Of a DNA stretch of 33,153 nt, positions 6,239 to 33,153 are shown one piece after another (position 1 is the stretch's first letter; each line of letters opens with the position of its first letter). The position numbers and the translations under genes are program-made. The notes beneath the pieces are model-generated. The model ran no database searches, had not been told where the DNA came from, and saw nothing but the letters and a program-made list of their open reading frames with translations. Origin of the DNA: an uncultured Gemmatimonadaceae bacterium (GTDB lineage Bacteria > Gemmatimonadota > Gemmatimonadetes > Gemmatimonadales > Gemmatimonadaceae); the NCBI GenBank assembly GCA_964626245.1, contig CAZVDJ010000001.1, forward strand, positions 1-33,153. Direction: 5' to 3'.

Positions 6239-6243
6239 CCGTC

Positions 6244-9281: not shown

Positions 9282-9320
9282 GCCGCCCTCGCTGCTGATT
9301 CGTCGGGACGCACGGGGCCC

Positions 9321-12373: not shown

Positions 12374-12389
12374 GAGGCTCCGTCCTTCC

Positions 12390-12402
12390 CTCGGTTACCG
12401 AG
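12390..12402 (-). promoter_or_regulatory. Perfect 6-1-6 inverted repeat CTCGGT-T-ACCGAG; candidate PadR operator
   Basis: Read directly, 17-31 nt upstream of the PadR ATG (12373). An extra half-site ctcggta lies at 12420-12426, inside the putative promoter spacer. Confidence 0.35.
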
Positions 12403-12431
12403 AGGATAAGGCCGCTCCACTCGGTAAGCAA
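12403..12431 (-). promoter_or_regulatory. Candidate sigma-70-type promoter for the PadR-ADOP pair (minus strand TTGCTT-N17-TATCCT)
   Basis: Read directly. The -35 is the reverse complement of aagcaa at 12426-12431. The -10 is the reverse complement of aggata at 12403-12408. The spacer is exactly 17 nt. It sits in one of the few locally AT-richer stretches, and the inverted repeat starts right after the -10. Confidence 0.35.
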
Positions 12432-12520
12432 GGGGAGGGGTGTGGGTGCCTACGAGCGCCCGCGCGAGTTGGTGTCAGCGGCGACTGGCTACGTCACCCC
12501 CAGCGCGCCACGGCGGCCGC

Positions 12521-15694: not shown

Positions 15695-15831
15695 GCAGCG
15701 AGGGGGCCGGGGCGTACAGGCGCGGGGAACCTCGCAAGAATACGCGTGGGGCGCGGCGCGCGTGACGCCACACCCCTCCGGTCATCGGCCGCCCGTGCCG
15801 CGGGCGATGCGCGGCTCCCCGCGCGACGGTG

Positions 15832-17207: not shown

Positions 17208-17338
17208 GTGGAGGAACCTGCCTGTCGAGTGATCGTGCGGGCGCCGCGGAGCCGGCGCGCCGAGATGAAGGGCAACGGACGCGCCACCCGCGGTGGGGCG
17301 CGGCGCGGGCGCCGAAGCGCCGAGTATGTCTCGATGCA

Positions 17339-17350
17339 GCAAGCGCTTGC
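17339..17350. promoter_or_regulatory. Perfect 12-bp palindrome GCAAGCGCTTGC in the TetR/EBP divergent intergenic region
   Basis: Read directly. Candidate operator; the binding protein is unknown. Confidence 0.3.
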
Positions 17351-17402
17351 GTGCGCGGTCCTTCCCGCTGGCGGCCGGAGAGCCTGCTTGTGCCCTTACG
17401 AC

Positions 17403-17414
17403 ATTTCGCGAAAT
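17403..17414. promoter_or_regulatory. Perfect 12-bp palindrome ATTTCGCGAAAT (TCGCGA core), about 70 nt upstream of the first EBP gene
   Basis: Read directly. It lies in the most AT-rich stretch of the 277-bp intergenic region. It shares the TCGCGA(AAT) core with the blocks upstream of the two sigma-54 promoters. Confidence 0.35.
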
Positions 17415-17484
17415 TGGGAGATCTCACGCCCTCGCAGTTCCAACCCATGGGCGCCGCGTCGCGCGCCAGGCACCGACCCCTCCG

Positions 17485-19065: not shown

Positions 19066-20715
19066 ATGACCTCCCCCGTCGATCCCCACGACGTGATGCC
19101 GCTTCCCGCGGCGCGCCTGGAGGTGCAGGTGGAGCTCCTGCGGCGCGTCACGCGCCACATGACGACTGCCGAGGACTTCGCGACGGTGCTGCAGTCGATT
19201 GCCGACGCCCTGGTGGCACAGGCCGGGGCGGTCGTGGCCCACATCTACCTGTACCTCGACGACGACGAGTGCCCGGTGTGCCGCACGCGGGCCCGGGAGG
19301 GACCGGCGGCCGGCGGCGCGCGGGGCGTCACGGGGCGCGACCTCCATCTCGTGACGATGAGCGGGGCACATTTTGCGCCTGACGGATCACGCCATCTCGT
19401 CCCTCATGCGCTGGACACACCGGCCGCGCGCATGATCCACTCCCCTGTTCCCGTGAGCAGGGACGACTTCGTCGACGACCCCGAGTGGCGCGCGGGCGAT
19501 CCCCGCTTCGCCGAGATCATGCGGCGCCTCGAAGTCCGCGGCACGATCTGCTATCCGCTGGTGCACCGGGGGGAACGACTGGGTGCACTCGGCTACCTCT
19601 CGCGCAGCCCCATCGACCCGGTCGTCTTCGAGTTGCTGGGGATCTTCGCCGACCAGGCGGCCATGGTCATTCGCAGCGCGCAGCTCTTTCGCGAAGTGGC
19701 GACGCACCGCGAGCGGCTGCAGTCGGAGAACGCATACCTGGAGGATGAGATCCGGAGCGACGCCAACTTCACGCACATCGTGGGGACGAGCACCGCGCTG
19801 CAGGGGGTCCTGCGCAAGGTGCGGCAGGTGGCCCCGGTGGAGACGACGGTACTGCTCACCGGCGAGACGGGGACGGGGAAGGAACTGATTGCGCGCGCCA
19901 TTCACGACGCGAGCCCGCGCAAGGATCGCCCGCTGATCAAGATCAACTGCGGCGCAATTCCGCAGGGAGTGGTGGAGAGCGAGCTCTTCGGCCATGAACG
20001 CGGGGCGTTCACTGGCGCGATGCAACAGCGCATTGGGCGATTCGAACTGGCGCACCAGGGCACGCTCTTCATGGACGAGGTGGGCGAACTTCCGCTCGAG
20101 ACGCAGGTCAAGCTGTTGCGCGTCCTGCAGGAGCGGGAATTCGAGCGGGTGGGGGGCACCAAGCCCATCGCCGTCGACGTACGGCTGATCGCGGCCACCA
20201 ACCGCGACCTGGAAGCCGAAGTGGCCGCCGGACGCTTTCGTGCGGACCTGTTCTATAGACTGAACGTCTTTCGCATCCGGATTCCCCCGTTGCGCGAGCG
20301 TCCCGACGACATCCCGCCGCTGGTGCAGCACCTCCTGGCGCAGCTGCAGCGCAAGCTGGCCAAGCCGCTCAAGGGGGTAAGCGAGGAGACGATGGCGCAG
20401 CTTCGGCGGTATCCCTGGCCCGGGAACATCCGCGAGCTGCAGAACGTGCTGGAACGCGCCGCGGTCCTCGCCACCGGGCCGATCGTGGCGTTGCACGATC
20501 CGCTGCGCCCAACCGCGATGGCGGGAAGTGCGGCATCGGGCGAGGTGACGATCTCCACGCTCGAGGACGGCGAGCGCGAACACATCCGCCGTGCGCTGAA
20601 GGAGAGCGGCGGCAAGGTGCACGGCCCGGGCGGGGCCGCCGAGATGCTGGGCATCAACCCCAGCACGCTGCGCTCGCGCATGCAGAAGCTCGCGATCGAC
20701 GCTCGAGGGAGTTAG
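19066..20715 (+). CDS. Sigma-54-dependent transcriptional activator (EBP), GAF / AAA+ / Fis-type HTH (paralog 2)
   Basis: ORF track 549 aa. LLTGETGTGKE, ESELFGHERGAFTGA, LFMDEVGEL, HTH AAEMLGINPSTLRSRMQKLAI. The ATG lies 3 nt after the paralog-1 stop. The AAA+ core is roughly three-quarters identical to paralog 1 by eye. Confidence 0.9.
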   Translation: MTSPVDPHDVMPLPAARLEVQVELLRRVTRHMTTAEDFATVLQSIADALVAQAGAVVAHIYLYLDDDECPVCRTRAREGPAAGGARGVTGRDLHLVTMSGAHFAPDGSRHLVPHALDTPAARMIHSPVPVSRDDFVDDPEWRAGDPRFAEIMRRLEVRGTICYPLVHRGERLGALGYLSRSPIDPVVFELLGIFADQAAMVIRSAQLFREVATHRERLQSENAYLEDEIRSDANFTHIVGTSTALQGVLRKVRQVAPVETTVLLTGETGTGKELIARAIHDASPRKDRPLIKINCGAIPQGVVESELFGHERGAFTGAMQQRIGRFELAHQGTLFMDEVGELPLETQVKLLRVLQEREFERVGGTKPIAVDVRLIAATNRDLEAEVAAGRFRADLFYRLNVFRIRIPPLRERPDDIPPLVQHLLAQLQRKLAKPLKGVSEETMAQLRRYPWPGNIRELQNVLERAAVLATGPIVALHDPLRPTAMAGSAASGEVTISTLEDGEREHIRRALKESGGKVHGPGGAAEMLGINPSTLRSRMQKLAIDARGS

Positions 20716-20765: not shown

Positions 20766-20803
20766 GGCAACACTCGCGACATCTCGCGACGGTCGTGGAA
20801 TCC
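20766..20803 (+). promoter_or_regulatory. Candidate upstream activator sequence (UAS) for the first sigma-54 promoter
   Basis: ggcaacacTCGCGAcatcTCGCGAcggtcgtggaatcc. Two TCGCGA hexamers lie 10 bp apart (20774-20779, 20784-20789). The block starts 142 bp upstream of TGGCA at 20908. It aligns at roughly 80% identity by eye with 26411-26446, which lies 139 bp upstream of the second sigma-54 promoter. Confidence 0.45.
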
Positions 20804-20907
20804 CGCGAAGCCGACGGGTCGCACCAGGCGCCGTCGTGACACGGGCCGACCACGCATCTACAGCCGCCGCCGTGACTTGCAGCGCACCCCGGTGCCTGAC
20901 CGGCGGG

Positions 20908-20923
20908 TGGCAATCCGGTTGCA
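20908..20923 (+). promoter_or_regulatory. Sigma-54 (-24/-12) promoter TGGCAA-TCCGG-TTGCA
   Basis: Read directly. GG and GC are separated by exactly 10 nt. It is intergenic, on the same strand as the adaptor gene, with its 3' end 85 nt upstream of the adaptor ATG (21009), directly downstream of two EBP genes. Confidence 0.65.
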
Positions 20924-21008: not shown

Positions 21009-22025
21009 ATGACAAAGACCCATCGCATTCTCATTGCGGCCACCACGCTCACCCTCGTCGGTGCCTTCGTGGCCCATCGCACGCTCGCCGCGGCCGATGG
21101 TGCCGACGTGATCACTGCCTCCGGTACGGTCGAGGCCACACAAGCAGAGCTCGGCTTCCAGCTCGCCGGGCGGCTGGAGCTCCTGACGGTCCGCGAAGGC
21201 GACGCCGTGACGGCGGGGACCGAACTTGCGCTGCTCGAGCGCGACGAGCTGCTGGCGCAGAAGGCCGCGGCCGAGGCGCAGCGGGCGGGCGCCGAGGCGG
21301 TGCTGCGGGAGCTGATCGCCGGCAGTCGCCGCGAGGAGATCGCGCAAGCCCGCGCCGCTCTCTCCGTGGCCACCGAGCGACGTGACGCGGCGCGACGCGA
21401 CGTGGAGCGGCTGCGGCCACTGGCCGACCAGTCGCTGGTGAGTCGCCAGGCCTTCGATCGCCAGGGCACGGCGCTCAGCGTCGCCGATGGCGAGGTGGCA
21501 CAGGCCAACGAACAGTTGCAGCTCCTGCAAAACGGCCCGCGCGCCGAGCGCATCGCGGCGCAGCGCGCGGCCACGGCGCAGGCCGCGGCGACGATCGACC
21601 GCATCGACGCCATGCTCGACCAGACGCGCCTCGAGGCGCCGATGAACGGGGTGGTCACGGTGCGGCATCGCGAGCCCGGTGAGACGCTGTCCCCGGGCAT
21701 GCCCGTGCTCACCATTCGCGACCTGGGCGACCGCTGGGTGCGCCTCTACGTCCCCGGCGACCAGGTGGGCCGGCTGCAGCTTGGGCAGCGCGCGACGATC
21801 ACTGCCGACGCCAATCCCGAGCTCATGTACACGGGGGAGGTGTCGTACATCGCCAGCGAGGCCGAGTTCACGCCACGCAACGTGCAGACGACGAAGGACC
21901 GCGTGAAGCTCGTGTACGAGGTGCGGGTCCGCATCACCAACGACGCTGCGATCGACCTCAAGCCCGGGCTCCCGGCCGACGTGCGCTTCACGGTCGCCCC
22001 CTCGCAGGGACGAGGTGCCACATGA
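21009..22025 (+). CDS. HlyD-family periplasmic adaptor (YbhG-like) of an ABC-2 efflux system
   Basis: ORF 20877..22025 trimmed to ATG 21009 (MTKTHRILIAATTLTLVGAFVAH...), 338 aa. N-terminal TM anchor, long coiled coil, C-terminal SYIASEAEFTPRNVQTTKDRVKLVYEVRVRI...LKPGLPADVRF typical of YbhG-type adaptors. Confidence 0.85.
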   Translation: MTKTHRILIAATTLTLVGAFVAHRTLAAADGADVITASGTVEATQAELGFQLAGRLELLTVREGDAVTAGTELALLERDELLAQKAAAEAQRAGAEAVLRELIAGSRREEIAQARAALSVATERRDAARRDVERLRPLADQSLVSRQAFDRQGTALSVADGEVAQANEQLQLLQNGPRAERIAAQRAATAQAAATIDRIDAMLDQTRLEAPMNGVVTVRHREPGETLSPGMPVLTIRDLGDRWVRLYVPGDQVGRLQLGQRATITADANPELMYTGEVSYIASEAEFTPRNVQTTKDRVKLVYEVRVRITNDAAIDLKPGLPADVRFTVAPSQGRGAT

Positions 22026-23017
22026 CCCACCCGCCTCCCGCCTCCCCGCCAGGCGCCGCGATCCGCGTGCAGGCGCTGACCAAGCGCTACGGTGCCCTCA
22101 CGGCGCTGGACACCCTGTCGCTGGAGGTGCGCAGCGGCGAGCTGTTCGGGATCGTTGGTCCCGACGGCAGTGGCAAGACCACCGTGCTGCGCATCCTGGC
22201 CGGCGTGCTGCGCCCGGAGGGTGGCGATGCCGTCGTCGCCGGCACCTCGGTCACGTCGGACCCGGAGGGGGTCAAGCACCGCATTGCCTACATGGCACAG
22301 CGCTTCGGGCTGTACGGCGACCTGTCGGTGCGCGAGAACATCGACTTCTACGCCGACCTGTACGGTGTGCCACGCGCCGTGCGCCCGGCGCGACTGGAGC
22401 GCCTGTTCGCCTTCTCCAACCTCGGCGCGTTCCAGCAACGGCTGGCGGGAAACCTGTCGGGCGGCATGAAGCAGAAGCTCTCGCTCTGTTGCGCCCTCAT
22501 CCATGAGCCCGAGGTGTTGCTGCTGGACGAGCCGACGTTCGGGGTGGATCCCATCTCGCGGCGCGAGCTCTGGCTCATCGTGCACGAGATGGTGGCCCGG
22601 GGGACGACGGCCGTGGTGTCGACGGCCTACCTGGACGAAGCGGAACGGTGCGACCGCGTGGCGTTGCTGAACCACGGCCGGCTGGCGGCGCTGGATACGC
22701 CGGCGGCGCTGCAGGCCAGGCTGGCGGGGCGATCGATCGCCATCGCATGCAACGCCCCGCGTCGCGCGGCTGCCCAGCTGCAAGGCATGGCTGGCGTGCG
22801 GAGCGCGGCGCTATACGGGCGCTCGCTGCACGTGACGCTCGAACAGCCACAGCTGGGCGAACAGGTCCTGGCGCATCTCCGTTCGGCGGGGATCGAGATC
22901 CAGTCGTCCCGGGCCTTCGACCCCTCGCTGGAAGATGTCTTCATCGAACTGTCGGCTACCGACGGCAGCACGCGCGGCAGTCACGACGCCACCCAGGGTT
23001 CTCTCCATGCCGCCTGA
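22022..23017 (+). CDS. ABC transporter ATP-binding protein (canonical motifs)
   Basis: ORF track 331 aa. Walker A GPDGSGKTT, signature LSGGMKQKL, Walker B LLLDEPTFGVD, H-loop STAYLDE. The ATG overlaps the adaptor stop (ATGA). Confidence 0.9.
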   Translation: MTHPPPASPPGAAIRVQALTKRYGALTALDTLSLEVRSGELFGIVGPDGSGKTTVLRILAGVLRPEGGDAVVAGTSVTSDPEGVKHRIAYMAQRFGLYGDLSVRENIDFYADLYGVPRAVRPARLERLFAFSNLGAFQQRLAGNLSGGMKQKLSLCCALIHEPEVLLLDEPTFGVDPISRRELWLIVHEMVARGTTAVVSTAYLDEAERCDRVALLNHGRLAALDTPAALQARLAGRSIAIACNAPRRAAAQLQGMAGVRSAALYGRSLHVTLEQPQLGEQVLAHLRSAGIEIQSSRAFDPSLEDVFIELSATDGSTRGSHDATQGSLHAA

Positions 23018-23960
23018 TCTCATGCCCGATGCCGTCACGGTGGACGGCCTGACCCGGCGCTACGGCGCCTTCACCGCGGTGGACGCCGTGAGCTTCTCCG
23101 TGCGTCCGGGCGAGGTGTTCGGATTCCTTGGCCCCAACGGGGCGGGGAAGACCACCACCATCAAGATGCTGACCGGGCTCGTGCGCCCCAGCGCCGGCCG
23201 CGGCAGCGTGGCCGGCTACGACGTGGTCACCAGCGGCGGGCGCATCAAGCACGTGATCGGATACATGTCGCAGCTGTTCTCGCTGTACCACGACCTCACG
23301 GTCGACGAGAACATCGACTTCGCGGCGGGGATGCACGGCGTGACGGGCACTCGCCTCGAGCGCCGCCGCGAGTGGGTGCTGTCGATGGCGCGCCTGCACG
23401 AGCATCGTGATCGCCCAACCGCCGCGCTGCCGCTGGGATGGAAGCAACGCCTGGCGCTGGGGTGTGCGGTGTTGCACGAACCCCGGGTGCTCTTTCTCGA
23501 CGAGCCGACCTCGGGGGTGGACCCGCTGGCCCGGCGCGCCTTCTGGGACGTGATCCACGAGCTGGCGCAGGGAGGGACCACGGTATTCGTGAGCACGCAC
23601 TACATGGAAGAAGCGGAGTACTGCGACCGGTTGGCGCTGATGAACCGTGGGCGCCTGATCGCGCTGGGCACCCCCGACACGTTGCGCGACGGCATGCCGG
23701 AGCCGGTGCTGCGGGTGGAGGTGAGCGACGCGCCACGTGCGGTGGCGGCGCTGGCCGGCGCCGACGGCGTGCTCGATGCCTCGCTCTTCGGCCGGGTGGT
23801 GCGGGTGATCGTGGCCGAAGCGTCGGTGGCCCGGGAGGCGGTGCGCCGCACCCTCGAAGGGGCGGGGCTTTCCTGTCTCGCCATTCAGCAGGTCGAACCC
23901 TCACTCGAGGACGTCTTCGTCTCGCACGTGCGGAATGCGGGGGGAGCGGTCATCTCATGA
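23007..23960 (+). CDS. ABC transporter ATP-binding protein (degenerate signature motif)
   Basis: ORF 22935..23960 trimmed to ATG 23007 (MPPDLMPDAVTVDGLTRRYG...); ATG 23022 is the alternative start. Walker A GPNGAGKTT, Walker B LFLDEPTSGVD, H-loop STHYMEE. The signature position reads LPLGWKQRL instead of LSGGQ. Confidence 0.9.
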   Translation: MPPDLMPDAVTVDGLTRRYGAFTAVDAVSFSVRPGEVFGFLGPNGAGKTTTIKMLTGLVRPSAGRGSVAGYDVVTSGGRIKHVIGYMSQLFSLYHDLTVDENIDFAAGMHGVTGTRLERRREWVLSMARLHEHRDRPTAALPLGWKQRLALGCAVLHEPRVLFLDEPTSGVDPLARRAFWDVIHELAQGGTTVFVSTHYMEEAEYCDRLALMNRGRLIALGTPDTLRDGMPEPVLRVEVSDAPRAVAALAGADGVLDASLFGRVVRVIVAEASVAREAVRRTLEGAGLSCLAIQQVEPSLEDVFVSHVRNAGGAVIS

Positions 23961-25108
23961 ATGCCACGAGTCACGGTGCGCTCCCGCGCACGTTCAGCGC
24001 GTCTCGGTTGTGGGCGATGGCGCGCAAGGAAGCGCTGCAGCTGCGGCGGGACGCGCGCAGCCTCGCGCTCGCCTTCGCCCTGCCGCTCCTGATGCTCATC
24101 CTGTTTGGCTACGCGATCACCACCGACGTCACCAACATCCAGGCGGCGGTGGTGGACCGCGACCACACGGCGGAGAGCCGCCGGTTCGTCGAGGCGTTCG
24201 CCCGGTCGGGCTACTTCACCTTCGTCGAGTCGCCGGCCAGCGAGGGGGCGCTCGACGGACTGATCGACAAGGGAAGGGTGCGGGTGGGGCTGGTGATCCC
24301 CGAGCGCTTCGCCGCCGAGTTGGCGGCGGGGCGGACGGCGCCGGTGGAACTGCGCCTGGATGGGAGCGACGCCAAGACGGCGACGGTGGCACGCGGCTAC
24401 GCGGATGCCATCGCCCGCACCTTCTCGCAGCAGACGGTTCTCCAGCTGCAACGTGCCACCCCTCCCCTCACGGCCCAGTCGCGCGTGTGGTACAACGAAA
24501 CGCTCGACTCCGCGTCGATGATCGTGCCGGGCCTGATTGCCGTGATCATGTCGATCATCGCCGCGATGCTCACCTCGCTCACGGTGGCACGCGAGTGGGA
24601 GCGGGGGACGATGGAACAGCTCGCGGCCACGCCGGTGAGCCGCAGCGAAGTGGTGCTCGGCAAGCTCGTCCCCTACCTGGCGATCGGCATCCTCGACGTG
24701 GCGGTCGCCCTGGTGGTGGCAGTGAGCATCTTCGACGTGCCGTTCCGGGGGAGCCTGCCCTTGTTCGCACTGTCGTCGGCGCTGTTCCTGGTTGGGGTGC
24801 TGGGGCTCGGGATCTTCATCTCGTCGGCGTTCAAGTCCCAGCTCCTGGCCACGCAGGCGGCGCTCTTCGCCACGTACATGCCCGCGCTGCTCTTCTCCGG
24901 CTTCATGTACACCATCAGCAACATGCCCGTGGCGCTGCAGTGGGTGTCGCGGGTGGTGCCGGCGCGCTACTTCGTCTCCATCTCGCGCGGGCTCTTCCTC
25001 AAGGGGGTCGGCACCGAGGTGCTGTGGCCGGCCCTGCTGGGGCTCACCCTTTACGCCGGGGCGATGCTGACCCTCGGCATCACGAAGTTCAAGAAGGAGC
25101 TGGCCTGA
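23957..25108 (+). CDS. ABC-2 type transporter permease (YbhS/YbhR-like)
   Basis: ORF 23438..25108 trimmed to ATG 23957 (MNATSHGALPRTFSASRLWAMARKEALQLRRDARSLALAFALPLLMLILFGYA...), 383 aa. N-terminal TM, large extracytoplasmic loop, C-terminal 5-TM ABC-2 core. The ATG overlaps the preceding stop (ATGA). Confidence 0.85.
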   Translation: MNATSHGALPRTFSASRLWAMARKEALQLRRDARSLALAFALPLLMLILFGYAITTDVTNIQAAVVDRDHTAESRRFVEAFARSGYFTFVESPASEGALDGLIDKGRVRVGLVIPERFAAELAAGRTAPVELRLDGSDAKTATVARGYADAIARTFSQQTVLQLQRATPPLTAQSRVWYNETLDSASMIVPGLIAVIMSIIAAMLTSLTVAREWERGTMEQLAATPVSRSEVVLGKLVPYLAIGILDVAVALVVAVSIFDVPFRGSLPLFALSSALFLVGVLGLGIFISSAFKSQLLATQAALFATYMPALLFSGFMYTISNMPVALQWVSRVVPARYFVSISRGLFLKGVGTEVLWPALLGLTLYAGAMLTLGITKFKKELA

Positions 25109-26244
25109 TGCACGCGACCGCGCATGCACCGCCGGACCGCTTCTCCTGGTCCCGGCTCTGGCACATGGTGCGAAAGGAACTGAAGCAGATGTGGCGCGAT
25201 CCCAAGGCGCGCCCCCTGCTCTTCATCTCCCCGATCTTCCAGATGTTCCTGATGGGCTATGCCGCAACGACGGACGTGAACGACATCACGACGATCGTGG
25301 CCGACCACGACCGCACCATGGAGTCGCGGGCGCTGGTGGCGGCCTACGAAGCAACGGGCTACTTCACGGTGGTGCGGCACACGGACCGCGCGGGAGACGT
25401 GACGGCCGCGCTGAACACGGGCGAGGCGATCGTGGGACTCACCATCCCGCCAGGCTTCTCGCGAGACCTGGCGTCCGGTCGCGCCATCGTACAGGCGGTG
25501 ATCGACGGTGCCGACGCCAGCCAGGCGACGGTGGCGCAGTCGTACGCCAACCAGATCGCCACCGAGTTCGGGGCGAAGCTGACCGGGCGACGCCTCGGCG
25601 GGGGCGTTGAGCTCCGCTCGCGCGCCTGGTTCAACCCGAGCTTCGAGAGCCGGTTCTTCAATGTGCCGGCCATCATGGGCGTTCAGATCTTCATGATCGG
25701 ACTGCTGCTCACCGCACTTGGTGTGGTGCGCGAGCGGGAAATCGGCACGCTGGACCAGCTGATGGTGAGCCCGATCCTCCCCGCCGAGTTCATGCTGGGC
25801 AAGACCATCCCGGTGCTGGGACTGGGGCTGCTCCACCTGGTGATCTACACGGTGATGACGGTTTGGCAGTTCGGGGTCCCGTTGACGGGGTCCTTTGCCT
25901 CGCTGGCCCTGGCGACATTCCTCTACACCCTGGCCGGGTTGGCCATCGGGCTCCTGATCTCGACCGTTTCGCGCACGCAGCAGGAGGCGTTCATGCTGCT
26001 GATCCTCTTCTTCCTCCCCGCCGTCATGCTCTCGGGCTTCGTGTCGCCGGTGGAGAGCATGCCCCTGGCGTTCCAGTGGCTCACCGTGCTCAACCCGGTG
26101 CGCTACTTCCTCGAGATCGTGCGCGGCGTCTTCCTCAAGGGGATCGGCCTGGGTGTGCTCTGGCCGCAGTACCTGATCCTGACGGTCATGGCAGTCGTCA
26201 CCCTTCAGTTTGCCACGCACCGGCTCAAGCGCCTGGTGGCCTGA
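25108..26244 (+). CDS. ABC-2 type transporter permease (YbhS/YbhR-like), paralog of the preceding gene
   Basis: ORF 23935..26244 trimmed to ATG 25108 (MHATAHAPPDRFSWSRLWHMVRKELKQMWRDPKARPLLFISPIFQMFLMGYA...), 378 aa. Same architecture as the preceding gene. 1-nt overlap with the preceding stop (TGATG). Confidence 0.85.
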   Translation: MHATAHAPPDRFSWSRLWHMVRKELKQMWRDPKARPLLFISPIFQMFLMGYAATTDVNDITTIVADHDRTMESRALVAAYEATGYFTVVRHTDRAGDVTAALNTGEAIVGLTIPPGFSRDLASGRAIVQAVIDGADASQATVAQSYANQIATEFGAKLTGRRLGGGVELRSRAWFNPSFESRFFNVPAIMGVQIFMIGLLLTALGVVREREIGTLDQLMVSPILPAEFMLGKTIPVLGLGLLHLVIYTVMTVWQFGVPLTGSFASLALATFLYTLAGLAIGLLISTVSRTQQEAFMLLILFFLPAVMLSGFVSPVESMPLAFQWLTVLNPVRYFLEIVRGVFLKGIGLGVLWPQYLILTVMAVVTLQFATHRLKRLVA

Positions 26245-26249
26245 CCCTA

Positions 26250-26290
26250 CCGCACCACCGCACCACCGCACCACCGCACCACCGCACGAC
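26250..26290. repeat. Octamer tandem repeat (ccgcacca x4 plus one imperfect copy), starting 6 nt after the permease stop
   Basis: Read directly and indexed by codon arithmetic from an overlapping ORF. Confidence 0.9.
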
Positions 26291-26294: not shown

Positions 26295-26328
26295 GAGGCC
26301 CGCACCCGAACCAACGGCTGCGGGCCTC
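26295..26328 (+). terminator. Strong GC-rich hairpin; candidate intrinsic terminator or RNA-processing structure after the ABC operon
   Basis: gaggcccgca (26295-26304) pairs perfectly with tgcgggcctc (26319-26328). Three more pairs are possible inside the loop (ccg/cgg). There is no T-tract after it, so terminator function is uncertain. Confidence 0.45.
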
Positions 26329-26353: not shown

Positions 26354-26446
26354 GGCCGTCGCGAGCGTCGTGGCGAGAGGCCGTCGCGACCGGCCGTCGC
26401 GAGCGGCCGCGGCGACATCGCGCGATCTCGCGACGTCGCGAAATCC
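26354..26446 (+). promoter_or_regulatory. TCGCGA-rich repeat cluster / candidate UAS for the second sigma-54 promoter
   Basis: Five TCGCGA hexamers in 83 bp (26359, 26384, 26397, 26428, 26436). GGCCGTCGCGA occurs three times. There is a 20-bp near-perfect palindrome ATCTCGCGAC/GTCGCGAAAT at 26425-26444 (9 of 10 arm positions pair). Block 26411-26446 aligns with 20766-20803. Confidence 0.45.
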
Positions 26447-26549
26447 AGCGACGCGCAGAGGGGACCCGCAAAGGACGCACGACGCGCCCGCGTGGTGCAA
26501 GTCGCACGACGACAGCGACTTGGCGTGACGTGCCACGCGGAGGCGGGAC

Positions 26550-26565
26550 TGGCACCCGCGTTGCC
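26550..26565 (+). promoter_or_regulatory. Sigma-54 (-24/-12) promoter TGGCAC-CCGCG-TTGCC
   Basis: Read directly and confirmed by codon indexing. GG-N10-GC spacing is exact and the TGGCAC matches consensus fully. Its 3' end is 69 nt upstream of the OMP ATG (26635), on the same strand. Confidence 0.65.
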
Positions 26566-26634
26566 TTCTCCAGTGGCGTCGCCGCCAGCGGCGATACGCA
26601 CCCAACACCACACTCACGATCGACTCGCCTTCAT

Positions 26635-28035
26635 ATGCCCTCCGCCACCTTCGCGCCCACATCCCGCCCTGTCTGCCCGGTGTCGGCACACCAGCACCTG
26701 GTCCGCGCATCGGTCGCGGCCGTCATGCTCGTCCTGGCACGGCCGGCCACGGCACACGCGCAGCAGCCGCTCTCACTCACGTTAGGCGGCGCGGCCCGCA
26801 TCGCAGCGGACCGCGGCACGCAGACCGAGGCCGCCCGCGCACGATCGGCACAGGCCGATGCCCGCGCCGTGCAACGTCGCTCGGCGCTGCTGCCGTCACT
26901 CTCGACGTCGACGCAGTACAGCGCCCGGACCTTCAACACGGCCTCGCTCGGGCTCAACATGCCCACGCCCAGCGGCGAGCCGGCGTTCGACACACGCGGC
27001 GAGGTGCTGGGCCCCGTGCGCTCCACCGACCTGCGCACGCAGCTCTCGCAGCGCGTGCTGGACCTGCCTGCCCTCTATGGCTGGCGAGCCGCGGGCGCGG
27101 ACGCGGAAGCGGCGCGCTTCGGCGTGAACCAGGCCTCGGAGGAGGCGGCCGAGCGCGGTGCGCTGGCCTACCTGGCGGTGGTGCGCGCCGAGGCACGCAT
27201 CGCCGCGCGCAGCGCGGATTCGGCGCTGGCGGCAGAGCTGGTCGACATCGCGCGGCAGCAGGTGCAGGCAGGCGTCGGCATCGCCCTCGACGTCACGAGG
27301 GCCCAGGCGCACCTGGCCGACGCCAGGGCGCGGCTCATTGCGACCCGAAGCGATCGCGATCGTGGCCTCCTCCAGCTCAAGCATGAGCTGGCGTTGGCAG
27401 CCGAGGCGCCGATCACCATCGCGGATTCGCTCGCCGACCCCGGCTCCGAAGAGTTTGACGAAGATCCGTCGGGCCTGCTGCAGGCGGCCCTGGCACGCCG
27501 CGCCGACTTCCTCGAGGCGCAGGCGCTGAGCGTGAGCGCGTCGACCCAGATGCGCGCGGCCCGTGCCGAACGCTACCCGGTGATCTCGCTCTTCGCCGAC
27601 CAGGGGCGCAACGGCAAGGACGTCGATCGCCTGCTCGACACGTACTCGTACGGCATCCAGGTGTCCGCGCCCCTCTTCGACGGCTTTCGCGCCTCGTCGC
27701 GCGCCGCGGAGCAGAAGGGGCGTCAACGCGAGGCGGAAGCCCGCATGGCCGACACGCGCCGGCAGGTGGAGACCGACGTGCGCTCCGCGCTGCTCACGCT
27801 TCGGGCCACGCGCGAGGAAGTGGCGGCGGCGCAGGCCCGCCTGACGCTCGCCGAGCAGGAAGTCGCGCAAGCGCGCGAGCTCTTCAAGGCAGGGATCAGT
27901 GGCAACAGTGACGTGATCAATGCCTCCATCGGGCTCAATGGCGCTCGCGACCTCGTGATCGACGCGCTCGCCCGCTACCACCAGTCGCGCGTGGCGCTGG
28001 CCAACGCGCAAGGCACCACCACGCAGATCCGCTGA
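26635..28035 (+). CDS. TolC-family outer membrane efflux protein
   Basis: ORF 26530..28035 trimmed to ATG 26635, 466 aa. Signal-like VAAVMLVLARPATAHA/QQ. Duplicated OEP pattern (LSLTLGGAARIAADRGTQTEAARARSAQADA...; LLQAALARRADFLEAQALSVSASTQMRAARAERYPVISLFADQG...). C-terminal ARYHQSRVALANAQG. Confidence 0.85.
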   Translation: MPSATFAPTSRPVCPVSAHQHLVRASVAAVMLVLARPATAHAQQPLSLTLGGAARIAADRGTQTEAARARSAQADARAVQRRSALLPSLSTSTQYSARTFNTASLGLNMPTPSGEPAFDTRGEVLGPVRSTDLRTQLSQRVLDLPALYGWRAAGADAEAARFGVNQASEEAAERGALAYLAVVRAEARIAARSADSALAAELVDIARQQVQAGVGIALDVTRAQAHLADARARLIATRSDRDRGLLQLKHELALAAEAPITIADSLADPGSEEFDEDPSGLLQAALARRADFLEAQALSVSASTQMRAARAERYPVISLFADQGRNGKDVDRLLDTYSYGIQVSAPLFDGFRASSRAAEQKGRQREAEARMADTRRQVETDVRSALLTLRATREEVAAAQARLTLAEQEVAQARELFKAGISGNSDVINASIGLNGARDLVIDALARYHQSRVALANAQGTTTQIR

Positions 28036-28064
28036 TCACCCTGCCAGAATCCGAGGACCTTCGC

Positions 28065-28364
28065 ATGTCGTTCATGCGCTTCCTGTTCCCGCGCCCGCTC
28101 AGTGATGACACGGCCAGGGCCCGTGCACTCCAGCAGTGGCTTGCCACCGGCGTGGTCCCGGTGGCGCACATGGTCGCCGACCTGGGTGCCATGGGCGAGG
28201 CCACTGGAGAGTTCGAACGACCACGCCCGGCGGCCATTCGTGCCGGCTCCACGTTCCCCGCCCGTTCGGCGCACCCGCTGCCCAGCAGCCTCCACGACAC
28301 GTCCTGCCATCGCCCATGTCGCCTGTCACCCCAAACGTGCGCGTGCGTCCATCATCACCGGTGA
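28065..28364 (+). CDS. Small hypothetical protein (99 aa) with a Cys/His-rich C-terminal tail
   Basis: GAGGA at 28053-28057 lies 7 nt before ATG 28065. Third-position GC is roughly 80% in this frame by my count. The stop overlaps the next ATG by 1 nt (TGATG), the same junction style seen elsewhere in the window. The tail reads SCHRPCRLSPQTCACVHHHR. I recognise no family. The last 50 nt are frame-ambiguous by codon bias. Confidence 0.45.
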   Translation: MSFMRFLFPRPLSDDTARARALQQWLATGVVPVAHMVADLGAMGEATGEFERPRPAAIRAGSTFPARSAHPLPSSLHDTSCHRPCRLSPQTCACVHHHR

Positions 28365-29314
28365 TGCGACGCCTGCTGGGCCTCGCGGCGTGGTTCGCCA
28401 CGCTCGTGCCAGCCATCACGTGGATGGCCGGGCGGGACAGCACGTTGCGCCTGGTCCTGAGCGGCGGCGATTCGCTGCTCACGACCCGTGTGCATGCGCC
28501 ATTGCTGGGCCGCGTCTCGTGGATCCTGGCCGGGACGCTCGCGGCGACGCTTCCGGTGATGTGGACGCGTTCGATCACGGCCAGGCGGCGCGGGTGGTCG
28601 CAGTCGGCCGTGCAGTCGCTGGTGGCGGTGCCGCTGCTGGCGGCGGGCGTCGTGCTGGTCGTGCCGCACGGTGCCGTGATCTCGCTGGCGCTGGTGTCGC
28701 TGCTGGCCGCCGTGCGGGTGGGGCGCAGCGCGCGCCGGTCGACCGACGTCATCGCCCTGGGCGTGGTGACATCGGCCGGCATCTCGGCGGCACGCGGACA
28801 GCTGGCGGTTGGTCTCGCCGTGTGCCTGTCGTATTGCGCGGTGTCGCTGCTCTGTGCCTGGCTGGATGTGGCGCGCCGTCCCGTGCGCGGGTTGCGGCGC
28901 CGTTGGACGTCGCGCGCTCCGTCAGGTGCACGACGGGCGCGCGCGGCACTGCTGCGGGATGGAAGGGTCGCGAACCGGCGAGCCGTCGCCGAGGACTCCG
29001 ACGCAGCATTCCGGCTGGCGGCGCGCGCATGGCGCGAGCGCCTGGCCATCGCGTCGTCGCCGTCCGACCCGCAGCGCGACCCTCGCTTCAACGCCGTGCT
29101 CAGCATCCACTCGACGGATGGCGCGCGTGTGCAGGCGCGACTCGAGCGGATCCTGCGCGAGTGCACCAGACGCTGGGAACTGCGCGCCTGTGAGCCGGGG
29201 GAGGATGGGAGGACGGTCCTGCGCTACGGCATCCGCGTGCCGCGCACCTCACGCGGGCGGTTGCTCGACGCGCTGCAACGCTCGGCGATTGCCGAGGGAG
29301 TGGAGCTGAGGTGA
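28364..29314 (+). CDS. Hypothetical polytopic membrane protein (about 6 TM) with a roughly 120-aa C-terminal soluble domain
   Basis: ORF 28136..29314 trimmed to ATG 28364 (MRRLLGLAAWFATLVPAITWMAG...), 316 aa; ATG 28316 is the alternative start. High third-position GC from 28364 onward. The C-terminal region FNAVLSIHSTDGARVQARLERILRECTRRWELRACEPGEDGRTVLRYGIRVP... looks like a small alpha/beta (ACT-like) module. Confidence 0.6.
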   Translation: MRRLLGLAAWFATLVPAITWMAGRDSTLRLVLSGGDSLLTTRVHAPLLGRVSWILAGTLAATLPVMWTRSITARRRGWSQSAVQSLVAVPLLAAGVVLVVPHGAVISLALVSLLAAVRVGRSARRSTDVIALGVVTSAGISAARGQLAVGLAVCLSYCAVSLLCAWLDVARRPVRGLRRRWTSRAPSGARRARAALLRDGRVANRRAVAEDSDAAFRLAARAWRERLAIASSPSDPQRDPRFNAVLSIHSTDGARVQARLERILRECTRRWELRACEPGEDGRTVLRYGIRVPRTSRGRLLDALQRSAIAEGVELR

Positions 29315-32300
29315 TGACGAAGCCGAGGACCTTTCAGGCAGTCGGTCGGTGGGACGCTCCCGGGGGCGACGCCCTCGGGCGCCTGGTGGCGGAGGGGGCA
29401 CCGTTCGCGCTCTCCGTCACCACCCCGCGCCGCACCGACTTTCGCGATGTCTACTTCGATACGGCCGACGGCGCCCTCCTGGCACAGGACGTCAGCTGCG
29501 TCCTGCGCCACCATGGGGCGGGGCACGGTACGCTGGTGGTGGCGCGGGGCTTTGACGGGGCGAGCGATGGGCCGACGGGCGCCGGCACGGCGATCGAGAT
29601 CGGCCACTCCGCAGTCGAGGTGCTCACGCGCGACAATGCGGCCACGCGTCAGCTGCGGCCATTCGTGGATCCGTCTGCACTCGCGCCGTGGCTCGAACTG
29701 GCGACCACTCGTCAGGCGGTGCACGCCGCGTCGCGCAGGTGGTTTCGCAAGTCGTCCTACACGCTGGCCTCCGATACGATGACGGTGCGTGCCGCCGGGT
29801 TGTCGGCCGTCTTCCATGAAGTGGCGATGCACGTGCAGCGCGACGGACGCCCCGGCGCGGCGGACGTGGGCGAGGCGCTGGCCGCGCGCCTGGGGCTGCG
29901 CGCCTCAACGGTGGAGCGACGGGTGCGAGCGCACGCGTTGCGATCGGCGCTGGAGCATGAGGCGAGCGCGCGCCGCGTGCGTGACGGCGGTCGCGTGGCC
30001 ATGGTGGCGCTCGACGGCCCACGCGTGGCGGCGGTGCGCGACGCGTCGGGCTGGCGCCTACCGGTGCTCGAGGGAAGCGGAGAGCTGACCGCGCGCCTGT
30101 TGCTGCAGCGGATCCTTGGCACGTCGGGGGGCGACGTGCAGCTCGTCTCGACGACCGACGGTGACCGCGAAGGGCGGGCGCCGCTGGAGGTCTGGTCCTG
30201 CACGGGCCTCGATCACTCCGCGCTGGCCGTGGGGCGTGGCGCGGTGGCGTGGCTCCCGATCGAGGAGCTGCTGGCGCACATCGAGACGCGGGAGGTGCAC
30301 GACGCGGCGACGCGCGCCGCGCTCGTGTCGCTCACCCGGTCCGACACGCTCAGATGGCTGGTGTCGTTGCCCTCGACGGCGCAACCGAGTGGGCGGCGCG
30401 CGCCGCGACAAGGCGCGGAGCGACAAGGCGCGCCGCGCGAGGGAGCGGCCAGCGTGCCGGCGATCGACGCCGACCTGAGCCTGCTCTCGTTCAACGAGCG
30501 CGTGCTTTCGCTGGCGACGGACGGCGCCACCCCGCTCCTGGATCGGTTGCGGTACGTGGCCATCGTCGGGGCCAACATCGACGAGTTTGTCTCGGTGCGC
30601 CTGGGCCGCCTCCGGGCGCGCGGCCGCCCCGGCGGCGACGGCGAGATTGCGCACCCGGCACGCCAGCGGCTGCGGCGCGTACGCGCGCGGCTGGCGCGGC
30701 TGTACGCCGAGCGTGATGCGGCACTCACGGGGACGCTGGCGGCGCTTCGCGCCAGCGGCCTGGCGGTTGAGCGGCTGCAGGATCTCGGCGCCGCGGACCA
30801 GGCAGCGCTGGACGAGCAGTTCCGCGCGCTGGTGTATCCGCTGCTCACCCCGCGCGCCCTGTCAGCGCTCCCGGGGTATCGCCGCGGCGTGATCGCGGCT
30901 CGCCAGCTGCATCTCGCGGTCGTGCACCGGGAGCCCTCGACGGGACTTCGCCAGCTGGCGGTGGTGGCGATCCCGCCGTCGGTCCCGCACTTCCTCTCGC
31001 TGCCTGGCGGCTCGACGTTCGTGGCGCTGGAGGAGGTACTGCGGCGCCATGTGCCGATGCTCTTTCCCGGGCGCGTGCTGGACGGGGCATACGCCTTTCG
31101 CGTGGGGCGGCACGCCGACCTCGACCTGGACGAAGCAGTGGCCGGGAGCCTGCTGCACGCGGTGGATGAACACGCGCGCCGCCGGGCGCGGCGTCCGATC
31201 GTGCAGGTGGAGGTGGAGCCGGGGATGCCGCGCGACATCCGGCGCCTCCTCCTGCGTGAGCTGGCCCTCGAGCCGGGGGTGCGCGCCGCCGGACTCGACG
31301 AGGACGACGTCGTGGAGGTGCCCGGCTTCCTGGATGTGACTGGCTTTCGCCAGTTGGCCGACCTGCCACGGGCGGAGCTTCGCTTCGCGCCACACGGCGC
31401 GCGCGACCCGCTGGCACGCGAGGCGTGCCTGTGGACGGCGCTCCGTCGGGAGGACCTGCTCGTGCACCATCCCTACGACGACTTCGCCGCCACGGTGGTG
31501 CGGTTCTTCGAGGCCGCGGCCGACGACCCCGACGTGATCGCCATCAAGGTGTCGCTCTACCGCACCGGTGACACGTCGCCGATTGCCGATGCGCTGCGCC
31601 GCGCCGCGCTGGCGGGGAAGGAGGTGTCGGTCTTCGTGGAGCTGCGGGCGCGCTTCGACGAGGAGCGCAACGTGCATTGGACGCGGTGCCTCGAGGAGGC
31701 GGGAGTGCACGTCGTGCACGGGGTACCGGGGATCAAGACGCACGCCAAGGTCGCACTGGTGGTGCGCCGGGAGCCCGATGGCCCGCAACGCTACGCCCAC
31801 GTCGCGACGGGCAACTACAACGCCGCAACGGCTCGGCTGTACACCGACCTCGGTCTCTTCACGACGCGCACGCGGGTGTGCGACGACGTCACCGACCTCT
31901 TCAATGCGCTGACATCGGGCCAGGTACCCGACCACATCGGCTTTCGTGACTGCCTGGTGGCCCCTGGCGGCTTGGCCACTGACCTTGTCACGCGGATTGC
32001 CGGCGAGGCCGCGCATGCGCGAGCCGGCCGTCCCGCCCGCATTCGCCTGCAGGTGAACGGTGTGGCCGACCCGCAGGTGGTCGAGGCGCTGTACGACGCT
32101 GCACGCGCGGGCGTGGAGGTCGACCTCGTGGTGCGCGGCTTGTGCACGCTGCGCCCCGGGGTTCCCGGTCATTCCGAACGCATCCGCGTCGTGAGCCTCG
32201 TGGGGCGCTACCTGGAGCACGCCCGCATCTACACCTTCGCCAACGGGGGCCAACCCGCATATTTCATCGGTTCGGCCGACCTGCGCGCGCGCAACCTGCG

Positions 32301-32511
32301 GCGGCGGGTCGAGGTGCTGGTGCCGATCGTCGAGCCGGCGCAGTGCGAGCGGCTGGATGCGATGCTGGACGCGGCCATGGCCGACCCAACGGGTTGGCGG
32401 CTGCAGTCCGATGAGTCCTACACGCGTGCTGCAGCTTCGGCATGGGACGAGGCCAGCGCGCAGGCGCGCCATGCGCGTGGCATGCTCACGGAAGGGACGG
32501 AGGCGTCCTGA
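29314..32511 (+). CDS. ppk1: Polyphosphate kinase 1 with a roughly 385-aa N-terminal extension containing a CYTH (triphosphate tunnel)-like domain
   Basis: ORF track 29311..32511; ATG at 29314 overlaps the preceding stop. PPK1 hallmarks: LSLLSFNERVLSLATDGATPLLDRLRYVAIVGANIDEFVSVR (N domain), GIKTHAKVALVVRREPDGPQRYAHVATGNYNAATARLYTDLGLFT (phospho-His region), VSLVGRYLEHARIYTFANGGQPAYFIGSADLRARNLRRRVEVLVPI (C2 domain). N-terminal CYTH-like strands: DFRDVYFDTADGALLAQDVSCVLR, TAIEIGH, VFHEVAMHVQRDG, LGLRASTVERRVRAHAL. Confidence 0.85.
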   Translation: MTKPRTFQAVGRWDAPGGDALGRLVAEGAPFALSVTTPRRTDFRDVYFDTADGALLAQDVSCVLRHHGAGHGTLVVARGFDGASDGPTGAGTAIEIGHSAVEVLTRDNAATRQLRPFVDPSALAPWLELATTRQAVHAASRRWFRKSSYTLASDTMTVRAAGLSAVFHEVAMHVQRDGRPGAADVGEALAARLGLRASTVERRVRAHALRSALEHEASARRVRDGGRVAMVALDGPRVAAVRDASGWRLPVLEGSGELTARLLLQRILGTSGGDVQLVSTTDGDREGRAPLEVWSCTGLDHSALAVGRGAVAWLPIEELLAHIETREVHDAATRAALVSLTRSDTLRWLVSLPSTAQPSGRRAPRQGAERQGAPREGAASVPAIDADLSLLSFNERVLSLATDGATPLLDRLRYVAIVGANIDEFVSVRLGRLRARGRPGGDGEIAHPARQRLRRVRARLARLYAERDAALTGTLAALRASGLAVERLQDLGAADQAALDEQFRALVYPLLTPRALSALPGYRRGVIAARQLHLAVVHREPSTGLRQLAVVAIPPSVPHFLSLPGGSTFVALEEVLRRHVPMLFPGRVLDGAYAFRVGRHADLDLDEAVAGSLLHAVDEHARRRARRPIVQVEVEPGMPRDIRRLLLRELALEPGVRAAGLDEDDVVEVPGFLDVTGFRQLADLPRAELRFAPHGARDPLAREACLWTALRREDLLVHHPYDDFAATVVRFFEAAADDPDVIAIKVSLYRTGDTSPIADALRRAALAGKEVSVFVELRARFDEERNVHWTRCLEEAGVHVVHGVPGIKTHAKVALVVRREPDGPQRYAHVATGNYNAATARLYTDLGLFTTRTRVCDDVTDLFNALTSGQVPDHIGFRDCLVAPGGLATDLVTRIAGEAAHARAGRPARIRLQVNGVADPQVVEALYDAARAGVEVDLVVRGLCTLRPGVPGHSERIRVVSLVGRYLEHARIYTFANGGQPAYFIGSADLRARNLRRRVEVLVPIVEPAQCERLDAMLDAAMADPTGWRLQSDESYTRAAASAWDEASAQARHARGMLTEGTEAS

Positions 32512-33153
32512 TGCGCCATTTCTTCCTCCGCCTGCGCCGAGCGGTCGCCGCGGTGATGCTTGCCAGTGTCGTCCTCCTGGCAGGGGGCGCCGGGCGTCCT
32601 CCCGCCGCGTCTCCCACGGCGCTGGGGCGGTTCGACCTGCGGCGGCGCGCCGCACGGCAGGTGCCGCTCCCGTCGGAACTGCGCGAAGTCTCCGGGCTGG
32701 CCGTGGACGCGCGCGGCGCGCTGTACGCGCACGGGGATGAACGCGGCGTTATCCGCCAGCTGCACGCGGCCTCGGGACGCATCGTGCGTTCGTTTCCCAT
32801 CGGTGATCCCCCGGTCCGGGCCGACCTCGAGGGAATCGCCGTCGCCGGCCAGCAGCTGGTGGTCATGACAAGCGATGGACTGCTCTACACCGCCACTCTC
32901 GGTATGGAGGGGACGGCCGGCCCCTTCACGCGCACCGACACCGGGCTGGGGCCGTGGTGCGAGCTGGAGGGGATGGCGTACGACCACGCACGCGACCTCC
33001 TCCTCATCGGCTGCAAGCTGCCGGCGCAACCGACCGGCAACCGAAACGTGACGCTCTTCCGCTGGTCGCGCGCGGCCGGGCGCCTGGCCCAGCCGGACCG
33101 CATCACCGTGCCCATGTCCCAGGTCACGCGCGCGAGCGGGGTGTCGCGCTTTC
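32511..33153 (+). CDS. Secreted SdiA-regulated/YjiK-like beta-propeller protein, N-terminal 214 codons (continues past the right edge)
   Basis: Absent from the ORF track because it is open at the edge. My own translation from ATG 32511 (1-nt overlap with the ppk stop, TGATG) has no stop to 33153: MRHFFLRLRRAVAAVMLASVVLLAGGAG...LPSELREVSGLAVDARGALYAHGDERGVIRQLHAASGRIVRSFPIGDPPVRADLEGIAVAG... Signal peptide plus SGL / DxEGIA motifs. The family call is from recollection. Confidence 0.6.
   Translation, partial: MRHFFLRLRRAVAAVMLASVVLLAGGAGRPPAASPTALGRFDLRRRAARQVPLPSELREVSGLAVDARGALYAHGDERGVIRQLHAASGRIVRSFPIGDPPVRADLEGIAVAGQQLVVMTSDGLLYTATLGMEGTAGPFTRTDTGLGPWCELEGMAYDHARDLLLIGCKLPAQPTGNRNVTLFRWSRAAGRLAQPDRITVPMSQVTRASGVSRF

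Follow-up and report, generated by a model that had tools for sequence, protein, structure and literature searches.

The general mechanism of sigma-54 (RpoN) and its enhancer-binding proteins (EBPs) has been summarised previously (PMC3162934). In the NifA/nifH, FhlA/hyc and NorR/norVW systems, the target promoter has a -24 GG/-12 GC core, in the form TGGCAC-N5-TTGC, and is preceded by a palindromic upstream activating sequence (UAS) about 100-150 bp upstream. The activator combines a GAF domain, an AAA+ domain bearing the GAFTGA motif and a C-terminal Fis-type helix-turn-helix (HTH), and it is encoded beside its targets. A similar arrangement is present on the 33,153-nt contig CAZVDJ010000001.1 (assembly GCA_964626245.1; about 71% G+C) of an uncultured Gemmatimonadaceae bacterium, the whole of which is called the window below. 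Here, a -24/-12 element at positions 26550-26565, termed P2, precedes a gene for a TolC-like outer-membrane protein (OMP), behind which a polyphosphate kinase with an N-terminal CYTH domain (CYTH-PPK1) is encoded. The candidate UAS, ATCTCGCGA-N2-TCGCGAAAT, and the targets, namely the TolC-like OMP and CYTH-PPK1, differ from those of NifA, FhlA and NorR. By analogy with these systems, P2 is best regarded as a mechanistically ordinary EBP-dependent sigma-54 promoter of the GAF-activator type. A literature search found no characterised sigma-54 promoter for the Gemmatimonadota.

The best overall explanation, to which a probability of roughly 0.78 is assigned, is that P2 is a functional RpoN promoter opening a transcription unit distinct from that of the ABC operon upstream. 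Taken by itself, the identification of P2 as a real sigma-54 promoter is very likely correct. That it also drives ppk1 is probable, at a lower level of confidence. Both assessments rest on comparative sequence analysis.

The P2 element, its enhancer and their conservation

Homologues of the window's proteins place its source in the Gemmatimonadaceae. For comparison, 80 related loci, designated by L numbers, were obtained from an OMP-alignment scan of species-representative genomes, and metagenomic loci were added through the closest OMP homologues: L081 (85% identity), L082 (75%), L083 (70%) and L084/L085 (64%). L086 is plasmid CP007129.1 of the cultured Gemmatirosa kalamazoonensis KBS708. Genes were identified with Pfam and NCBIfam profiles, and synteny was followed by tblastn, which recovered the EBP–adaptor–ATPase–ATPase–permease–OMP block in L001-L004, L061, L063, L067, L081, L084 and L086, and part of it in L005, L082 and L083. 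The regulatory elements at P2 and P1 are the following.

26550-26565, plus strand: P2, sigma-54 (-24/-12) promoter TGGCACCCGCGTTGCC, an exact consensus match with orthologous conservation
26425-26444: candidate UAS (putative EBP-binding site) of P2, ATCTCGCGA-CG-TCGCGAAAT, a near-perfect 20-bp palindrome
26354-26405: three extra (A/C)GGCCGTCGCGA(G/C)CG repeats with TCGCGA in each, upstream of the main UAS
26498-26523: weakly conserved element CAAGTCGC-N9-GCGACTTG between the UAS and P2, an 8-bp inverted repeat in the window
20908-20923, plus strand: P1, sigma-54 promoter TGGCAATCCGGTTGCA, 85 nt ahead of the HlyD-type adaptor ATG at 21009
About 20771-20811: candidate UAS of P1, CTCGCGACATCTCGCGACGGTCGTGGAATCC, 127 nt upstream of P1

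P2 is composed of TGGCAC (26550-26555), the five nucleotides CCGCG and TTGC (26561-26564). Its GG (26551-26552) and GC (26563-26564) are canonically spaced, and 10 of 10 core positions match the consensus. An earlier note on this DNA had described TGGCAC and TTGC at the canonical spacing and a distance of 69 nt to the OMP start codon; both statements are confirmed, the ATG being at 26635. The element is situated in the 390-nt spacer between the co-directional permease (stop 26244) and OMP genes. From the usual spacing, transcription is predicted to start near 26576. On the two strands of the window, P2 is the sole exact occurrence of TGGCAC-N5-TTGC, compared with 0.04 expected from dinucleotide-preserving shuffles (n = 100), three of which contained at least one match. 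One-mismatch matches number 5 against 2.4 expected; since this is the chance level, only the exact match stands out by itself. Near-matches at 28397-28411 (minus strand) and 31986-32000 (plus strand, without the GG) are intragenic and unconserved and were treated as chance. A scan of the window for a sigma-70-like consensus found no site and thus no signal competing with P2, and an Rfam scan of the window matched no family.

A -24/-12 element occupies the orthologous place in 11 of 11 relatives with a permease–OMP spacer. It is exact (10/10) in six of them (L081, L082, L083, L084, L085 and L001), matches at 8-9 of 10 positions in L002-L005 and at 8 of 10 in L086 (at 9923), and always retains the GG and the TTGC. 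Wherever the spacer measures 200-900 nt, the element is found about 60-100 nt ahead of the OMP start. The earlier note had suggested examining orthologous clusters for the promoter and named its loss from relatives with the same gene order as grounds for refutation; it is kept in all 11 spacer-bearing relatives, and no such loss was seen. Across ten loci (380 kb with both strands counted), the exact motif was matched six times, each time by the orthologous P2. In an alignment of the permease–OMP spacer from ten sequences (OMP identity 57-85%), column identity rises from a background of about 0.45-0.55 to 0.73-0.87 over P2 and 0.80-0.87 over the UAS, and these are the only two strong islands.

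The possibility that the P2 motif is not a promoter is very remote. The motif would then have arisen by chance or would serve as an operator for some other DNA-binding protein, for example the TetR-family repressor encoded nearby (gene at 16479-17207). This reading would draw on the chance-level frequency of one-mismatch matches in the window and on the partly palindromic GGCA-N7-TGCC within P2. However, relatives keep the asymmetric TGG…TTGC and not the symmetry, as in TGGTCCTCGCATTGCC of L002 and L003, and the reading as a palindromic operator was rejected on this ground. Moreover, an exact motif expected only 0.04 times per window is conserved over 57-85% OMP identity, always with an EBP-type site about 125 nt away and with EBP genes alongside.

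The candidate UAS contains a perfect 14-bp palindrome, TCGCGACGTCGCGA (26428-26441), which occurs only once in the window, and the conserved block around it extends to about 26452 (…CCAGCGA). In 8 of 10 loci, the distance from the start of the UAS to the TGG of P2 is exactly 125 nt. Among the 47 occurrences of UAS 9-mers in the ten loci (190 kb, single-stranded), 39 precede a -24/-12 element by 99-137 nt. The hexamer TCGCGA is as frequent in the window as expected, and its clusters (copies within 25 nt) number four against 0.37 expected, all four upstream of P1 or P2. The three repeats at 26354-26405, each with this hexamer, may be additional activator sites. The relationship between P1 and P2 became visible by manual anchoring on the TGG, which exposed the common UAS; a MAFFT alignment of the two regions had left the promoters unaligned.

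Between the UAS and P2, the alignment columns of the element at 26498-26523 show an invariant AA…TT, and the hairpin potential is lost in most relatives. A hairpin just 5' of P2 (26488-26541) has a folding z-score of -1.8 and pairing that the same alignment shows to be lost in most relatives; it was accepted neither as a terminator nor as a conserved RNA structure. DNA-bending proteins act at a comparable position in other sigma-54 promoters. Five of ten relatives carry CAA-N4-TTG, an IHF-like core, between the UAS and P2; the window differs in this respect, and an IHF-like site was not adopted for it.

Transcription units on either side of P2

Upstream of the P2 spacer lies the ABC operon, which ends in a hairpin.

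21009-22025, plus strand: YbhG-like (HlyD) adaptor
22022-23017 and about 22935-23960, plus strand: two ABC ATPases
23935-26244, plus strand: fused double ABC-2 permease
26295-26328, plus strand: terminator-like GC-rich hairpin with 14-nt arms (93% complementary) and a 6-nt loop

The adaptor, ATPases and permease (21009-26244) presumably form an exporter that is served by the TolC-like OMP. The permease is a single fused ORF of 769 aa with two paralogous halves in the window, L003, L004 and L061, and is split into two genes in L081 (7379-9624) and L083 (870-3100). A tandem repeat, (ACCGCACC)×5, occupies 26249-26290 between the permease stop and the hairpin.

The strong hairpin that the earlier note had seen closing the ABC operon was recovered at 26295-26328, beginning 51 nt past the permease stop. 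Its structure is conserved across relatives: a strong hairpin of different sequence is found at the same place in L081, L082, L083, L084, L001, L004, L005 and L086. Conservation of structure without conservation of sequence argues for a terminator. In some relatives, the hairpin has a T-run, namely GTTTTCATT (…CCCCCGTTTTCATT) in L004, …GGGCTTT in L001 and …GGGCCTTT in L081. Because a terminator-like hairpin closes the permease gene, a promoter such as P2 would be needed behind it.

Alternatively, the OMP string may be transcribed mainly by read-through from P1, the hairpin being an RNA-stability or attenuation element and P2 a minor or conditional boost. This explanation is improbable. It gains from the window hairpin, which is not followed by a T-run, from the UAS type shared by P1 and P2, which would convey the same signal either way, and from the loci L061, L063 and L067, in which the OMP gene follows the permease without a P2-type element. 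Against it, several relatives, for example L004, have a canonical hairpin and T-run terminator at this place, and selection appears to have preserved both the -24/-12 element and the UAS, with 125 nt between them, in every spacer-bearing relative, which is hard to square with a dispensable promoter. L061, L063 and L067 are more distant, have only a short permease–OMP gap and possess P1 only, P1 being kept in all operon-bearing loci including these three. Their possession of P1 without a P2-type element also fits a dedicated internal promoter, and P2 looks like a clade-specific internal promoter that restarts transcription of the channel gene under the exporter's control.

Downstream of P2, the following genes are encoded.

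26635-28035, plus strand: TolC-like outer-membrane efflux protein, 466 aa, first gene after P2 (Pfam OEP PF02321, two repeats, E=7e-42)
28065-28364, plus strand: conserved small protein, 99 aa, motif W(L/M)ATGVVPVAHMVADLGA…TGE(F/Y)E
28364-29314, plus strand: membrane protein, 316 aa, N-terminal half with hydrophobic segments and C-terminal half Arg-rich
29311-32511, plus strand: fusion of CYTH, middle domain and PPK1, 1066 aa, start GTG 29311 or ATG 29314
32511-33153, plus strand: secreted propeller-like protein with a signal-peptide-like N-terminus, cut off by the end of the window

The promoter P2 is most probably, or at least plausibly, the origin of a transcript that runs in this organism through the small ORF, the membrane protein and CYTH-PPK1 to the propeller gene, because these genes overlap or sit 29 nt apart. 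Between the OMP stop at 28035 and the small-ORF ATG at 28065 are 29 nt that include a GAGGA ribosome-binding site, and TGATG overlaps of 1 nt each are found at 28364 and 32511. The junction GTGATG at 29311-29314 is an overlap of 1 or 4 nt, depending on the start codon. The tight co-directional junctions listed in the earlier note therefore stand as to the gap and the 1-nt overlaps, with the reservation that the one at 29311-29314 may be 4 nt. Between 26566 and 29311, the plus strand contains no -24/-12 match at 9/10 or above, and neither an enhancer-type site nor a sigma-70-like consensus was found in this stretch. A simple scan listed terminator-like sites inside the OMP–PPK string; these were dismissed as terminators, being weak stems of 5-7 bp placed over start codons or within genes.

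The order of genes behind the OMP differs among relatives.

L081: small ORF, membrane protein, CYTH-PPK1, propeller, 312-aa gene, Omp85
L084/L085: small ORF, CYTH-PPK1, propeller, Omp85
L001: membrane protein, CYTH-PPK1, Omp85
L082: small ORF (76 aa), membrane-like gene, Omp85, with no kinase
L002-L005 and L086: other genes

The order OMP–small ORF–(membrane)–PPK–(propeller) is thus represented in four lineages (the window, L081, L084/L085 and L001), and wherever the kinase module is present, it is attached by overlaps or by gaps of at most 44 nt. Because the downstream genes differ among relatives, P2, the OMP and the small ORF can be regarded as a conserved core and the kinase module as a variable insert. 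This leads to another explanation, in which P2 drives only the OMP and perhaps the small ORF, and the membrane protein, CYTH-PPK1 and propeller genes are a separately acquired module with its own promoter in the upstream coding sequence, which would leave ppk1 outside sigma-54 control. The module does come and go independently of the core: L082 has no PPK, L084/L085 have the PPK without the membrane gene, and the OMP is followed by other genes in L002-L005 and L086. However, three junctions overlap by 1-4 nt and the fourth gap holds only a ribosome-binding site, the stretch 26566-29311 gave none of the promoter and UAS-type signals named above, and the tight OMP–PPK arrangement is kept in L081, L084/L085 and L001. 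A module with its own promoter is therefore unlikely, and co-transcription from P2, as suggested by overlaps, tight spacing and four-lineage synteny, is the most economical reading.

Several observations nevertheless weigh against P2 as the promoter of a unit reaching ppk1. The base following its -12 GC is C, where the consensus has A or T. The -24 hexamer is TGGTCC, TGGCCT or TGGCCC in L002-L005 and L086, so that only the GG and the TTGC are strict. The rpoN gene is not in the window, and its presence in the genome is deduced from the GAFTGA-bearing EBPs encoded here and in relatives. In the window, the missing T-run means that P1 read-through may also feed OMP expression. The PPK module, absent from L082 at 75% OMP identity as well as from L002-L005 and L086, resembles a mobile insert and could bring its own promoter inside coding sequence. 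Finally, promoter types besides sigma-54 are, to our knowledge, uncharacterised in the Gemmatimonadota, so internal starts are possible.

The TolC-like label given to the OMP in the earlier note is borne out by the two OEP repeats. Its match to TIGR01844 (E=3.6e-36) is below the cutoff, its homologues are Gemmatimonadaceae TolC-family proteins, and its N-terminus, …VMLVLARPATAHA-Q, resembles a signal peptide as judged by eye. The small protein has no predicted transmembrane segment and no Pfam family match. It belongs to a family of 64-99 aa (relatives 64-76) that follows the OMP in L081 (11440-11667), L082 (3391-3621), L083 (4796-5020) and L084 (11407-11601), with an invariant core W.ATGVVPVAH.V.D…T.E and, in the window copy, a longer Cys/His-rich tail. 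The membrane protein matched no family in profile searches and has homologues at the same position in L081 (53%), L082 (43%) and L001 (42%). For the last gene, the name propeller, likewise taken from the earlier note, has only faint SdiA-regulated and phytase-like matches behind it in the window; in L081 and L084, where the orthologues are full-length, SdiA-regulated is matched at E ~1e-7 and Phytase-like at E=4e-4 and 0.015. An Omp85-family protein ends the string in L081 (17953-20544), L082 (4605-7214), L001 (15677-18262) and L084 (15866-18284). The window ends before this point; in relatives, the TolC-like channel and the polyphosphate kinase keep company with Omp85.

Judged by its sequence, the kinase is a true PPK1. 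It has all four PPK1 domains (Pfam PP_kinase_N, PP_kinase, C_1 and C), scores 617.8 bits against TIGR03705 (cutoff 465.85) and aligns end to end over residues 385-1031 with E. coli PPK1 (1xdo). The earlier note had called it CYTH-PPK1. The second half of this label holds for the protein itself and the first half at the level of the family, since the 384-residue N-terminal extension of the window kinase alone matches Pfam CYTH below threshold (E=0.03; 14.5 bits, cutoff 23.2). An exhaustive search of representatives with this extension returned 158 relatives, many of them 1,040-1,080 aa long with the domain N-terminal; a word-indexed homologue search with the N-terminal domain had given one match only. 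Pfam CYTH matches 23 of 28 full-length family members (best E=2.2e-10). Over the N-terminal ~200 residues, a family profile finds E. coli YgiF (5a60) by its CYTH domain, at E=4e-4, and the other non-PPK matches of the profile in the PDB are all CYTH/TTM proteins.

The fusion family comprises at least dozens of 50%-identity clusters. A conserved middle domain of about 140 residues (…VALDG.RVAAVRD..GWRLP.LEGSGE…LEVW.CTG…) stands between the CYTH and PPK1 parts, and profile searches with residues ~215-355 of the kinase gave no family match. An AlphaFold2 model of residues 1-385, made from a two-sequence alignment, was unusable (mean pLDDT 42.3, pTM 0.27). A literature search found no report of a CYTH-PPK1 fusion or of a sigma-54 promoter at ppk1, and this absence is not proof of novelty.

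Activators and the wider promoter set

Two candidate activators are encoded upstream of the ABC operon, next to a third promoter that faces the opposite direction.

17485-19062, plus strand: EBPa, GAF–sigma-54 AAA+–HTH_8 with intact GAFTGA, from profile matches
19066-20715, plus strand: EBPb, tandem GAF–AAA+–HTH_8 with intact GAFTGA, from profile matches
17286-17271, minus strand: P0, sigma-54-type promoter TGGCGCGTCCGTTGCC, about 65 nt ahead of the TetR gene start (~17207)
17388-17428: UAS-like block of P0, including ATTTCGCGAAAT, 117-120 nt upstream of P0

Both proteins read ...HE(K/R)GAFTGA.... Wherever the contig of a relative extends far enough, an EBP gene is found immediately before the operon, and the recognition helix at the C-terminus of the EBPs (…NPSTLRSRMQKLGI) is near-invariant across loci. 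Both activators fall under every NCBIfam equivalog cutoff, the best matches being FhlA, NifA and NorR, and are therefore not orthologues of a characterised activator. EBPa probably starts at GTG 17485 (MNPHLDVLRRV…, in agreement with the gene call of L081) and not at 17293, where its reading frame offers a first start; the P0 enhancer lies between the two, within 17293-17485.

P0 faces the TetR gene, with the genes of an RND (AcrB-like) pump next on the same strand. Both P0 and its UAS are kept in L081 (525 and 627-667). A further pair of enhancer and promoter, about 127 nt apart, is found at 18395-18540 of L001, ahead of a gene for a secreted protein after Omp85, and another at 1067-1210 of L086 (Gemmatirosa), ahead of an alpha/beta hydrolase gene that follows the EBP gene. 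The putative regulon therefore extends beyond the locus. The simplest reading is that one activator system would serve several promoters at a fixed helical phase through putative binding sites of one type.

The following course of events at P2 may be proposed. The sigma-54 holoenzyme would occupy the -24 GG and the -12 GC of P2 and form a closed complex. EBPa, EBPb or both would bind to ATCTCGCGA-CG-TCGCGAAAT, 125 nt upstream. Upon a signal received via the GAF domain, the EBPs would reach the holoenzyme by DNA looping and open P2 with ATP, and transcription would begin near 26576. The same activators would act at P1, which precedes the adaptor and ABC-2 exporter, and at P0, which precedes the TetR gene with the RND pump genes behind it. 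With a shared activator system, the exporter and its outer-membrane channel would thus be switched on together, as would the genes that follow the channel.

A more far-reaching proposal is that P0, P1, P2 and their copies in relatives form an undescribed multi-promoter sigma-54 regulon of the Gemmatimonadaceae, with an enhancer of the ATCTCGCGA/TCGCGAAAT type at about 125 nt and paired GAF activators. Envelope export (the ABC-2 exporter, the TolC-like channel, probably the RND pump and, in relatives, Omp85) would thereby be linked with polyphosphate (polyP) synthesis by CYTH-PPK1. This proposal is tentative and, on present evidence, doubtful. If it were true, polyP production would be transcriptionally tied to an envelope or efflux stimulus.

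Export and signalling genes crowd the minus strand over the first 16,500 nt (1-16500) of the window.

738-1949, minus strand: HlyD-like adaptor
1956-3155, minus strand: OEP
3260-4900, minus strand: histidine kinase
Within 4809-5990, minus strand: OmpR-type response regulator
6055-8589, plus strand: DPP-IV/S9 peptidase
9321-12293, minus strand: MacB-like permease
12521-15694, minus strand: AcrB-like RND pump

Comparison with described systems

A role of sigma-54 in controlling envelope and transport functions agrees with the "bacterial exterior" theme (PMC3162934) and with recent predictions for ABC-type systems (PMC12316311). If confirmed, the locus would provide a defined sigma-54/EBP module, with promoter, enhancer, spacing, activators and targets, in the under-studied Gemmatimonadota. 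Gemmatirosa kalamazoonensis KBS708 is a cultured experimental system for the EBP, P1, the terminator and P2, all of which it retains, although its locus has no PPK gene.

The ABC operon resembles the E. coli YbhGFSR system, which works with TolC. PRK03598, a YbhG-type model, recognises the adaptor at E=4.7e-60 (below cutoff), Pfam HH_YBHG is found on relatives, and both systems combine ABC ATPases (two here) with duplicated ABC-2 permease domains. In E. coli, the system is under a TetR-family repressor. In contrast, EBP control is apparent here, and a dedicated TolC-like gene has its own putative sigma-54 promoter.

The phylum's first cultured member, Gemmatimonas aurantiaca, is described as a polyphosphate accumulator in a title cited in PMC3162934. 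In E. coli, RpoN affects the stress-induced accumulation of polyP (bioRxiv 10.1101/2020.03.11.988303; 10.1101/2021.10.15.464621), and ppk mRNA is reported to drop after nutrient limitation (10.1101/2020.03.11.988303). TTM–CHAD proteins have also been connected to polyP (bioRxiv 10.1101/567040). The CYTH-PPK1 family, with proteins of about 1,060 aa that recur between a TolC-like channel and Omp85, hints at a link between polyP and the cell envelope. The kinases of this family share a CYTH domain, at their N-terminus, with the E. coli CYTH-CHAD triphosphatase YgiF; unlike YgiF, they have this domain fused to a complete PPK1 instead of CHAD. Compared with E. coli PPK, the enzyme bears the CYTH and middle domains in addition. 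The influence of RpoN and DksA on polyP synthesis in E. coli (ppk-ppx) is described as indirect, with no sigma-54 promoter described at ppk, whereas here a -24/-12 promoter appears to head the operon that includes ppk1. If this is true, the locus would offer a direct route from sigma-54 to ppk1, as opposed to the indirect link between RpoN and polyP in E. coli.

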